Origin: a virus
Taxonomy: Duplodnaviria > Heunggongvirae > Uroviricota > Caudoviricetes
Strand: one strand, 5' to 3'
DNA: 64,000 nt
IMG/VR virus record: IMGVR_UViG_3300032236_001858
The notes below the pieces were generated by a model, which did not search any database, had not been told where the DNA came from, and saw only the letters and a list, made by a program, of their open reading frames with translations. How positions within the stretch are numbered: the first letter of the stretch is position 1; every line of letters begins with the position of its first letter. Of the stretch, positions 59,303-59,648 are shown in pieces. A program made the position numbers and the translations under genes.

Positions 59303-59375
59303 GATTCCGTAGCTCAATTGGTGGAGCTTCCGGCTTTTAACCGGAAGGATGTGAGTTCGAACCTCACCGGAATCA
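59303..59375 (+). tRNA. tRNA-Lys(TTT), canonical class I
   Basis: Acceptor GATTCCG/CGGAATC, D arm GCTC-AATTGGTG-GAGC, anticodon stem TCCGG/CCGGA with loop CTTTTAA, T arm GTGAG-TTCGAAC-CTCAC. Confidence 0.65.
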
Positions 59376-59382
59376 CTAAAAT

Positions 59383-59469
59383 GGTTCTGTCGCTTAGCGG
59401 CTATAGCAACTGGCTTTTAACCAGTAGAGATAATGTTCTCAACCGTGGGTTCGAGTCCCACCAGGACCA
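59383..59469 (+). tRNA. class-II-bodied tRNA (19-nt variable arm, Ser-like D loop) carrying Lys anticodon TTT
   Basis: Acceptor GGTTCTG/CAGGACC, anticodon stem ACTGG/CCAGT with loop CTTTTAA, variable arm AGAGATAATGTTCTCAACC, T arm GTGGG-TTCGAGT-CCCAC, discriminator A73. Confidence 0.45.
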
Positions 59470-59477
59470 CTAAAAAC

Positions 59478-59561
59478 ACTCCTGTCGCTCAGAGGTCGAG
59501 AGCAACTGGCTTTTAACCAGTAGACGCAAGTCCATCGTAGGTTCGAATCCTACCAGGAGTA
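59478..59561 (+). tRNA. class-II-bodied tRNA (15-nt variable arm) carrying Lys anticodon TTT
   Basis: Acceptor ACTCCTG/CAGGAGT, D arm GCTC-AGAGGTCGA-GAGC. The anticodon arm ACTGG-CTTTTAA-CCAGT is identical to the one in 59383..59469. T arm GTAGG-TTCGAAT-CCTAC. Discriminator A73. Confidence 0.45.
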
Positions 59562-59565
59562 CTAA

Positions 59566-59648
59566 CGATTCGTCGCATAGTGGCTATTGCACCTGACTCT
59601 TAATCAGGCGAAGAAATTCAATCGTGGGTTCGAGTCCCACCGGGTCGA
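59566..59648 (+). tRNA. class-II-bodied tRNA (15-nt variable arm) carrying Lys anticodon CTT
   Basis: Acceptor CGATTCG/CGGGTCG (two G-U pairs), anticodon stem CCTGA/TCAGG with loop CTCTTAA, T arm GTGGG-TTCGAGT-CCCAC, discriminator A73. Confidence 0.4.

Follow-up and report, generated by a model that had tools for sequence, protein, structure and literature searches.

In a 64,000-nt stretch of DNA from a virus of the class Caudoviricetes (IMG/VR record IMGVR_UViG_3300032236_001858; hereafter the window), sequence inspection places four tRNA genes head to tail on the plus strand at positions 59303-59648, with 3-7 nt between neighbours. All four carry lysine anticodons, and three of them are built on a class II body, i.e., one with a long variable arm. 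According to textbooks and reviews, the long variable arm is confined in bacteria to the tRNAs for leucine, serine, tyrosine and selenocysteine. The first-pass annotation of this locus had described four tRNA-Lys genes in a row, the last three with variable arms of 15-19 nt, anticodons UUU, UUU and CUU, and discriminator A73, and had proposed that the folds and the anticodon register be checked with software. Each of these features was found as described: ARAGORN, Rfam and the predicted folds agree, there is no shift of register, and the arms fold. ARAGORN calls Lys(ttt) at 59303-59376, 59383-59470 and 59478-59562 and Lys(ctt) at 59566-59649, and the four genes give full-length matches to the Rfam model RF00005 of 71.1, 60.5, 65.0 and 53.2 bits, respectively, against a gathering score of 29 bits.

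The first gene (59303-59375, +; anticodon 59336-59338) is a class I tRNA-Lys(UUU) with a 5-nt variable loop, and its cloverleaf is the minimum-free-energy fold. The three genes that follow depart from the 4-5 nt variable loop of a class I body: Their variable regions form hairpins of 19, 15 and 15 nt, the Rfam alignment places all of their surplus bases within this region, and in the minimum-free-energy fold each hairpin sits inside a complete cloverleaf. Gene 2 (59383-59469, +), an 87-nt class II tRNA-Lys(UUU) supported by ARAGORN, Rfam and folding, has its anticodon at 59416-59418 and a variable region at 59426-59444 (+) that consists of A, a 4-bp stem (GAGA/UCUC), a 6-nt loop and AACC; its D stem has 3 bp, its D arm is Tyr-like, and its Levitt pair is G15-C48. 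Gene 3 (59478-59561, +), an 84-nt class II tRNA-Lys(UUU) with the anticodon at 59512-59514 and a first pair A1-U72, has a variable region at 59522-59536 (+) made up of A, a 3-bp stem (GAC/GUC), the GNRA loop GCAA and CAUC. Gene 4 (59566-59648, +), an 83-nt class II tRNA-Lys(CUU) with the anticodon at 59599-59601 and a first pair C1-G72, has a variable region at 59609-59623 (+) composed of C, a 3-bp stem (GAA/UUC), the GNRA loop GAAA and AAUC. All four genes have a 7-bp acceptor stem, a 5-bp T stem and A73, and none encodes CCA. Their anticodon loops read, in order, CTTTTAA, CTTTTAA, CTTTTAA and CTCTTAA, and in genes 2-4 the anticodon stems are clean 5-bp helices closed by 7-nt loops with U33 and A37. 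Against the covariance model of the family described below, genes 2, 3 and 4 score 92.9, 96.2 and 93.9 bits. A shift of register towards Leu-TAA or Ser-TGA is ruled out because ARAGORN and Rfam both put UUU or CUU in the 7-nt loop, and pseudogene status is ruled out by the scores, the conservation and the covariation. The four genes are almost certainly real, and they look functional; chance falls far short of explaining such an array.

Long-arm tRNA-Lys genes are not peculiar to the window phage: The same family occurs in many phages, cultured ones included. Among 50,697 phage records, the only DNA relatives of the window are LR745206, LR756502 and LR756504, which are uncultured phages with genomes of 634-642 kb. 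The four-gene array recurs in LR745206, LR756502 carries three long-arm Lys genes in the corresponding position, and the nine long-arm genes of the window and these two genomes differ from one another by many compensatory changes. The array is also kept in relatives among the loci fetched for comparison (L001, L003, L014, L017, L023, L026 and L039); one of them, L023, has at 3750-3837 a near-identical orthologue of gene 2 with a compensated acceptor stem. A search for a DNA pattern with class II spacing between the Lys-UUU loop and the T arm matched 37 IMG/VR contigs of 6-357 kb and, with one genome per species across 185,579 prokaryotic species, 14 contigs; nearly all matches were confirmed by ARAGORN as tRNA-Lys genes of 83-94 nt within phage tRNA arrays. 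The same UUU pattern with class I spacing occurs at no fewer than 120 viral loci, and 17 of 55 CUU loci have the long arm. Altogether the family as collected here comprises 81 distinct long-arm tRNA-Lys genes from 76 loci, and in 37 loci the long form is the sole UUU tRNA within the fetched stretch. In cultured phages the long-arm genes are all of the CUU type and are annotated as plain tRNA-Lys; the carriers are Xanthomonas phage XacN1 (87 nt), Ruegeria phage vB_RpoS-V10 (88 nt), and Caulobacter phage CcrBL9 and its relatives (87 nt).

The claim of the first-pass annotation that class II bodies with lysine anticodons are not a normal bacterial class is borne out by the mere 14 matches in 185,579 species, several of them prophage-like. 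Five of these matches lie in prophage-like tRNA arrays, mostly in metagenome-assembled genomes (MAGs) of Acidobacteriota. About six others are near-identical, single-copy, 85-nt tRNA-Lys(UUU) genes in Actinomycetota MAGs assigned to Frankiales, Mycobacteriales and Actinomycetales (L043 5179-5263, L046 1157-1243, L045, L049, L050 and L052). The two examined, those of L043 and L046, are flanked by genes for PPK2, an oxidoreductase, Ada/AlkA and a GH3 glycosidase, which is a housekeeping setting and not a phage array; in these MAGs a class II tRNA-Lys may have been adopted by a cellular lineage. Archaeal matches to the pattern (L044 and L051) were set aside as lying outside the family and appear, judged by sequence, to be intron-containing tRNA genes. 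In one long-arm Lys member (L035 1287-1375) the anticodon loop has 8 nt, and ARAGORN gives it a four-base anticodon, ttta; this copy may be decaying or may resemble a frameshift suppressor.

Because an alignment of the variable arms made with MAFFT was structurally inconsistent, it was replaced by an alignment to a covariance model built from the nine genes of the window, LR745206 and LR756502, to which 67 members, 64 of them distinct, were aligned. Across the 64 distinct members, standard pairs occupy 98.1% of cells as against 70.5% after shuffling, both-sided changes are seen at 21 of the 22 pairs, and the covariation score is 0.742, compared with 0.185 for shuffled sequences and 0.07-0.11 for partners displaced by 1-3 columns; an alignment of this kind is fitted to the model structure and is biased towards it, although the margins are still very large. 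The two modelled pairs of the variable arm covary as well. Over the family of 81, the Levitt pair also covaries, being G15-C48 in 57 members and A15-U48 in nine.

The arm itself follows a common plan of one unpaired nucleotide, a stem of 3-5 bp, usually a GNRA tetraloop, and then 3-4 unpaired nucleotides. The tetraloop is GNRA in 44 of 66 cases (67%) and GAAA in 30, the unpaired stretch 3' of the arm has four nucleotides in 42 members and three in 19, and 78% of arms, as against 28% of shuffled ones, form a hairpin with 3 bp or more. In class II tRNA identity, the number of nucleotides in this spacer helps to fix the orientation of the arm. At the same loci it is one nucleotide in tRNA-Ser, two in tRNA-Leu and three in tRNA-Tyr, whose loops are rarely GNRA, whereas window genes 2-4, with arm stems of 3-4 bp, have four. 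On that basis the Lys arm would have a geometry of its own, with Tyr the nearest. An arm that is stereotyped, covarying and GNRA-capped points to selection on the arm itself; for what, its design does not tell.

Which amino acid these tRNAs accept can be approached through the known identity elements. Lysine identity depends on all three anticodon bases and A73; serine identity on the long arm and G73; leucine identity in E. coli on A73, A15-U48, G18G19 and A20a, the anticodon being ignored by LeuRS; and tyrosine identity on A73 and U35, plus G1-C72 in bacteria (PMC9976931). In the family of 81, A73 is present in 78 members and a CTTTTAA or CTCTTAA loop in 80, such that the lysine determinants are found in 78-80 members. 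Since this anticodon loop, C32 U33 NUU A37 A38, together with A73 makes up the full known identity set of lysyl-tRNA synthetase (LysRS), the long-arm tRNAs would be charged with lysine and would read AAA and AAG as lysine, and we think it very probable, on the strength of these sequence elements, that genes 2-4 accept lysine and that LysRS charges them.

Serine and leucine identities can be set aside on discriminator, acceptor start, Levitt pair and arm geometry. Phage tRNA-Ser genes have G73 in 110 of 125 cases and begin with GGA in 91 of 125, whereas window genes 2-4 have A73 and begin with GGT, ACT and CGA; and the tRNA-Ser arm, with 4-7 bp and about one unpaired nucleotide before the T stem, differs from the window arms with their 3-4 bp and four nucleotides. 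Phage tRNA-Leu genes have A15-U48 in 68 of 79 cases, whereas inspection of genes 2-4 gives G15-C48. The first-pass annotation had also described Ser/Leu-like D loops reading AGCGGCT; this exact string occurs in gene 2 and is absent from genes 3 and 4, and the proposed kinship does not hold, since the D arms of genes 2 and 4 come closest to phage tRNA-Tyr, with 89-95% identity (95% for gene 4). Tyrosine is the nearest of the other identities. Genes 2-4 share A73 and U35 with tRNA-Tyr, but their anticodons are UUU, UUU and CUU rather than GUA, and their first pairs are G-C, A-U and C-G, whereas bacterial TyrRS uses G1-C72. Only genes 2 and 4 of the window are clearly Tyr-like in the D arm, and over the whole family the nearest D-arm neighbours are class I Lys (0.79), Tyr (0.78) and Ser (0.78), which indicates no clear single origin. 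Long-arm tRNAs of other isotypes have the discriminator that belongs to their own anticodon (Asn, G in 10/12; Trp, G in 5/5; Thr, U in 5/6; Gly, U in 2/2; His, C in 2/3), as expected if an anticodon-defined identity is under selection.

The genes of the window show how its lysine codons are read. The window uses the standard code, with open reading frames (ORFs) of up to 1430 aa and a TAA stop in 26 of 27 sampled ORFs. Lysine codons make up 7.7% of all codons, and AAA alone, at 5.9%, is the second commonest codon. In the DNA ligase, both the adenylated lysine of the KxDG motif and a second conserved lysine are encoded by AAG, and the Walker-A lysine of an SMC-like ATPase is encoded by AAA. When 70 AAA or AAG positions were aligned to E. 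coli LigA and SmpB, 25 fell on K (background 5.6%), eight on R, four on S, three on L (background 10%) and none on Y. AAA and AAG mean lysine in the window genome.

In some huge phages the long-arm genes stand next to a gene for LysRS. LR756504 has the order Lys-CUU, long Lys-UUU, Lys-UUU, LysRS, Lys-CUU, in which the synthetase (L230 5749-6885) has 378 aa, scores 359 bits with NCBIfam lysS and is without the N-terminal extension; in L012, a 152-kb contig, a 399-aa LysRS at 7988-9187 follows two long Lys genes by 1 kb; and in L245, a 508-kb contig, LysRS (4001-5170) starts about 40 nt after a long Lys-UUU gene. The gene order of L245 matches that of the window (Phe/His/Trp tRNAs, Lys tRNAs, Arg/Ser tRNAs), with LysRS directly after the Lys array. 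LysRS thus lies in or after Lys arrays with long-arm members in three huge-phage contigs (LR756504/L230/L234, L012/L235 and L245), and these enzymes, of 378-399 aa, have no counterpart of the roughly 70-aa N-terminal extension of bacterial LysS. LysRS is absent from the window and from the fetched loci of L001, L003, L014, L017, L023, L026 and L039. In five other large contigs (L276-L279 and L282), a LysRS homologue follows a tRNA-Leu gene instead. A synthetase about 5 kb upstream of the LR745206 array, considered as a candidate LysRS, proved to be an archaeal-type non-discriminating AspRS; it is full-length, with 474 bits (L231 6581-7945, LR745206 336580-337944).

The window that surrounds the array has a G+C content of 24-38% per 2-kb segment, mostly about 29%, and encodes a translation-related set of more than 12 tRNA genes, SmpB, S1-domain, L7/L12-like and YqeY-like proteins, and a 210-aa HisRS core, along with a sigma factor, an NAD-dependent DNA ligase, a Dam methylase, DnaJ and Sir2. 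It also has several ORFs that resemble homing endonucleases, among them a 180-aa HNH ORF (58686-59228, +; Pfam HNH_4 and HNH) within the tRNA array directly 5' of the Lys genes; across the window, such ORFs, of the HNH, LAGLIDADG and NUMOD1 types, are found at 58686-59228 (+), 52426-53298 (+) and 34518-35198 (-). The HisRS-like gene (59944-60576, +), identified from Pfam and from alignments to PDB structures, encodes a minimal class II synthetase core of 210 aa that scores 158 bits with NCBIfam hisS, below the cut-off; it has motifs 1-3 and the HisRS signature motifs and is without the insertion domain and the anticodon-binding domain. It has about 80% DNA identity to its counterparts in LR745206 and LR756502, there are tRNA-His genes nearby at 58317-58390, and by synteny its position is occupied by the phage LysRS gene in the relatives L245 and L012. 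A role for this mini-HisRS as a special synthetase for the long-arm Lys tRNAs was considered and rejected on the grounds that it has all HisRS signature motifs, that tRNA-His lies nearby, and that the adjacency is not kept in L001 and L002. A promoter and terminator scan was uninformative, with 18 promoter-like sites against 15 expected.

Several other tRNA-like elements lie around the array, all on the plus strand. A tRNA-like gene at 59659-59766, without an ARAGORN call, combines A73 with D and T arms and an acceptor stem of 7 bp (AGUCAAG/CUUGACU); its anticodon loop may be GUUAAUC (UAA, Leu), its variable region has about 39 nt, and its overall fold is no better than those of shuffled sequences (z = 0.02). 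The element at 59773-59916 has tRNA-like ends (GGAGAGA...UCUCUCC), normal D and T arms, about 70 extra nucleotides that include a 9-bp hairpin, a partial Rfam tRNA match (59847-59909, 24.5 bits) and a possible GUU (Asn) loop near its 3' part; it could be an interrupted or rearranged tRNA gene. A third, at 60586-60716, has about 57 nt inserted after the D arm, a G3-C70 pair rather than G3-U70, and a sub-threshold Rfam match to tmRNA (31 bits, gathering score 47); ARAGORN finds no tmRNA in the window, and SmpB, the protein partner of tmRNA, is encoded 8 kb upstream (51960-52406, +; 176 bits). Also missed by ARAGORN were a class II tRNA-Ser(GCU) with a good cloverleaf (61203-61290), a Trp(CCA)-like tRNA whose D arm is odd and which scores 27 bits with the tRNA-Sec model (58472-58543), and a His(GUG)-like remnant of 22.6 bits (58160-58226).

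Lysine is not the only isotype with an unusual body in phage arrays. In the loci L004-L228, the long arm is also found on tRNAs for Asn, Met, Thr, Cys, Trp, Arg, His and Gly; Val and Glu have one such call each, and Ala, Asp and Pro have none. Of the phage tRNA-Leu genes there, about one half have only 72-77 nt and a variable loop like that of class I, and they retain A73 and A15-U48. Long-arm tRNAs with a UAU anticodon (Ile, AUA), 85-92 nt in length, are present in many phage arrays (L008 8593-8686, L090 2684, L098 1029, L157 254, L203 6939 and others); they have a conserved loop motif, CCAGAUUAGCG or CUAGAUUUG, and often an unusual D arm, and may have a connection with the allo-tRNA(UAU) that Mukai et al. 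described. In loci chosen for class I Lys genes, 26 of 91 Ile tRNAs are long.

What could a class II body offer a phage tRNA-Lys? [quoted passage not shown] The first-pass annotation had suggested that the class II genes are disguised replacements that escape such nucleases; of the views on their function this one still appeals most, as an inference, and the account that we develop here is related to it. The four tightly packed genes would probably be processed from one transcript, as part of the translation module of a huge phage, and genes 2-4 would be charged with lysine and would read AAA and AAG as lysine alongside the class I gene 1. Their class II body may have been recruited from, or have converged with, a bacterial-type tRNA-Tyr, with an arm geometry unlike that of Tyr, Leu or Ser. 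Because AAA is abundant and tRNA-Lys is a favourite target of host nucleases, the phage could benefit from retaining several structurally different Lys tRNAs; the extra arm would alter the shape near the anticodon stem and the elbow, such that a long-arm tRNA might work on when the class I form is cut. That genes 2-4 are lysine-accepting tRNAs on a Tyr-like class II body which plausibly sustain decoding when the class I tRNA is cut is, in our judgement, an evenly balanced proposition; that the arm serves specifically to escape a tRNA-directed host attack is speculative, and we would put it somewhat below even. Three features fit the idea that lysine decoding is sustained under attack: the extra helix beside the anticodon stem, the homing endonuclease within the array, and the fact that related phages retain orthologous sets of three or four Lys tRNAs that differ in structure.

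A number of observations weigh against this account. The Pfam screen of 50 ORFs and the PADLOC screen of 10 ORFs detected no anticodon nuclease and no tRNA repair gene in the window, returning only an SMC/LmuB-like ATPase and a DnaG-like Toprim protein. Because the arm is about as frequent on CUU genes (17 of 55) as on UUU genes (37 long against at least 120 class I), and because it is also found on Ile, Asn, Met, Thr, Cys and Trp tRNAs, it is not a Lys-specific answer to Lys nucleases. Several members keep the string U36-A-A-U-C-A41 that AriB recognises in E. coli (PMC12409363). Some copies, in Actinomycetota MAGs, sit among housekeeping genes, such that a role in phage counter-defence is inapplicable to them. 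The Tyr-like D arms of genes 2 and 4, combined with A73 and U35, may allow some tyrosylation, to judge by sequence. Finally, class II synthetases such as LysRS approach the tRNA from the side of the variable loop, where an extra arm might hinder them.

The main alternative is that the change of body is neutral or tolerated, in keeping with the fast evolution of phage tRNA arrays through duplications and shifts of anticodon: A Tyr-like gene gained a lysine anticodon, or a Lys gene gained a hairpin, and the product is an ordinary lysine tRNA whose arm has no adaptive role beyond that of supplying AAA and AAG codons. Because LysRS reads only the anticodon and A73, it would tolerate the swapped body, and because many class I isotypes have long arms at a low level and about half of phage tRNA-Leu genes are armless, gain and loss of the arm look easy in phages; the close match of the D arms of genes 2 and 4 to phage tRNA-Tyr, the lack of a bias of the arm to UUU over CUU, and the share of AAA among codons suit this explanation as well. 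It does not readily account for an arm that is stereotyped across very different phages (a 1-nt spacer, GNRA in two-thirds, 3-4 nt on the 3' side) and has a covarying stem, for the upkeep of three or four structurally different Lys tRNAs as orthologous sets, or for the near absence of the form from cellular genomes, and we regard it as possible but doubtful. A tie to the phage synthetase is suggested by the shortened LysRS genes in or directly after long-arm arrays in three huge-phage contigs, among them L245, which shares the gene order of the window: The class II tRNAs could be preferred by this enzyme and form with it a private pair, a lysylation channel insulated from host control or attack. 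But the window has no LysRS, and neither do the loci fetched from its nearest relatives, the synthetase near the LR745206 array is a non-discriminating AspRS, the same arrays also hold class I Lys tRNAs, and most of the 76 carrier loci show no LysRS, which together render the private pair unlikely.

The remaining alternatives take the long-arm genes out of ordinary lysine decoding. The second suggestion of the first-pass annotation was that SerRS and LeuRS, which ignore the anticodon, might mischarge the class II bodies and recode AAA and AAG; in a wider form, TyrRS, LeuRS or SerRS would charge them, and AAA and AAG would be read partly as Tyr, Leu or Ser, by mistranslation or by a change of code. 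There is a precedent in the nematode nev-tRNAs, which are charged with leucine (PMC3333845), the D arm and the arm length are Tyr-like, A73 and U35 are the chief determinants of TyrRS, and LeuRS ignores the anticodon (PMC9976931). The bodies, however, bear no Ser or Leu marks: G73/GGA and A15-U48 are missing from the window genes, whose first pairs are G-C, A-U and C-G and whose arm geometry is unlike that of Ser, Leu or Tyr. Catalytic and conserved lysines are encoded by AAG and AAA, with K at 25 of 70 aligned positions and Y at none; the discriminators of the other long-arm isotypes track their anticodons; LysRS genes adjoin long-arm Lys arrays; and mischarging would hit the 7.7% of codons that are lysine codons through three of the four Lys genes or, in 37 loci, through the sole UUU gene. 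The recoding idea finds no support in this evidence, and we consider such mischarging very improbable. Still less credible is a non-translational function, in which the long-arm genes would not decode but would titrate host tRNA nucleases, as decoys or inhibitors, or act as other tRNA-like regulatory RNAs. Although some viral tRNAs are possibly AriB inhibitors when overexpressed (PMC12409363) and some allo-tRNA(UAU) are apparently unused in translation (PMC5389517), the long-arm genes conserve the 7/5 branch, G18G19, the T loop, U33, A37 and A73, features needed for decoding, EF-Tu and the ribosome, and they are often the sole UUU tRNA in an otherwise complete phage tRNA set.

Setting these alternatives beside the reading of genes 2-4 as lysine tRNAs that sustain decoding under attack, we tentatively offer a broader proposal: Phages may systematically transfer class I tRNAs to a class II body while the anticodon and discriminator marks of identity stay in place, as a shape-based means of decoding after host immunity has cut or disabled the usual tRNA, one that is coupled to a shortened phage LysRS in some huge phages, and the GNRA-capped arm with its 4-nt spacer may constitute a fourth natural class II geometry, tuned for acceptance by LysRS and rejection by SerRS, LeuRS, TyrRS and tRNA-Lys nucleases. 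Among the isotypes found in such rebuilt form, Lys is the commonest, and Asn, Thr, Ile, Met, Cys and Trp also occur. The long-arm tRNA-Lys is neither unique to the window nor a change of code, and in annotation such genes should not be taken as evidence of an altered genetic code. It represents a well-conserved lysine tRNA family with a long arm that is common in phage arrays and has passed uncommented in the GenBank records of cultured phages; in the full-text literature searched, whose coverage is incomplete so that absence is not proof, we found no description of a class II tRNA-Lys in phages or in huge-phage modules. These tRNAs may also serve as natural scaffolds for engineering tRNAs that LysRS accepts and other factors do not.

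Among known tRNAs, those closest in structure are the bacterial tRNA-Tyr, with which the long-arm genes share A73, U35, G15-C48, a D arm that is near-identical in genes 2 and 4, and one nucleotide before and several after the arm stem; tRNA-Tyr differs in its GUA anticodon, in having three rather than four nucleotides after the arm, in its UNCG or other loops in place of GNRA, and in its fixed G1-C72. The nematode nev-tRNAs (PMC3333845) likewise combine class II bodies with the anticodons of class I amino acids, but they descend from tRNA-Leu and retain its determinants, and with their Gly or Ile anticodons they accept leucine and can misread codons, whereas the phage Lys tRNAs have no Leu marks and the full Lys identity set, in a genome in which AAA and AAG are lysine. 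Allo-tRNAs and the (8/4) phage tRNA-Ser and tRNA-His described by Mukai et al. (PMC5389517) also have long arms and many anticodons and are known from metagenomes, phage clusters and Acidobacteria; they have, however, an 8/4 or 9/3 branch, mostly G73 or U73, and Ser or Ala identity, as opposed to the 7/5 branch and A73 of the long-arm Lys genes.

As to setting, the tRNA set, SmpB, the S1-domain, L7/L12-like and YqeY-like proteins, and the synthetase fragment of the window resemble the translation modules of huge phages, and its homing-endonuclease-like ORFs, one of them inside the tRNA array, have a parallel in T4-like phages, whose tRNA regions contain Seg endonucleases. With E. coli and phage T5 tRNA-Lys(UUU), the long-arm genes have in common the anticodon loop (C U U/C U U A A), A73, the 7-bp acceptor stem and the 5-bp T stem. 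The T5 gene is, like them, phage-encoded and part of a tRNA array, and it is a proven counter to PARIS (PMC11464382, PMC12409363); the long-arm genes resemble it further in being phage-encoded isoacceptors of a tRNA that nucleases target. The T5 tRNA escapes through U39A and A41C in the anticodon stem of a class I body, whereas in the long-arm genes, whose nuclease resistance is putative, the whole body is class II, with a hairpin arm of 15-19 nt, a D stem of 3 bp and a D loop like that of tRNA-Tyr. Of all targets of the tRNA nucleases that act against phages, tRNA-Lys is the one best documented (PrrC, RloC, PARIS and Schlafen), and these genes are therefore a testable candidate for a second escape route, one that proceeds by a change in the shape of the body rather than by point mutations.

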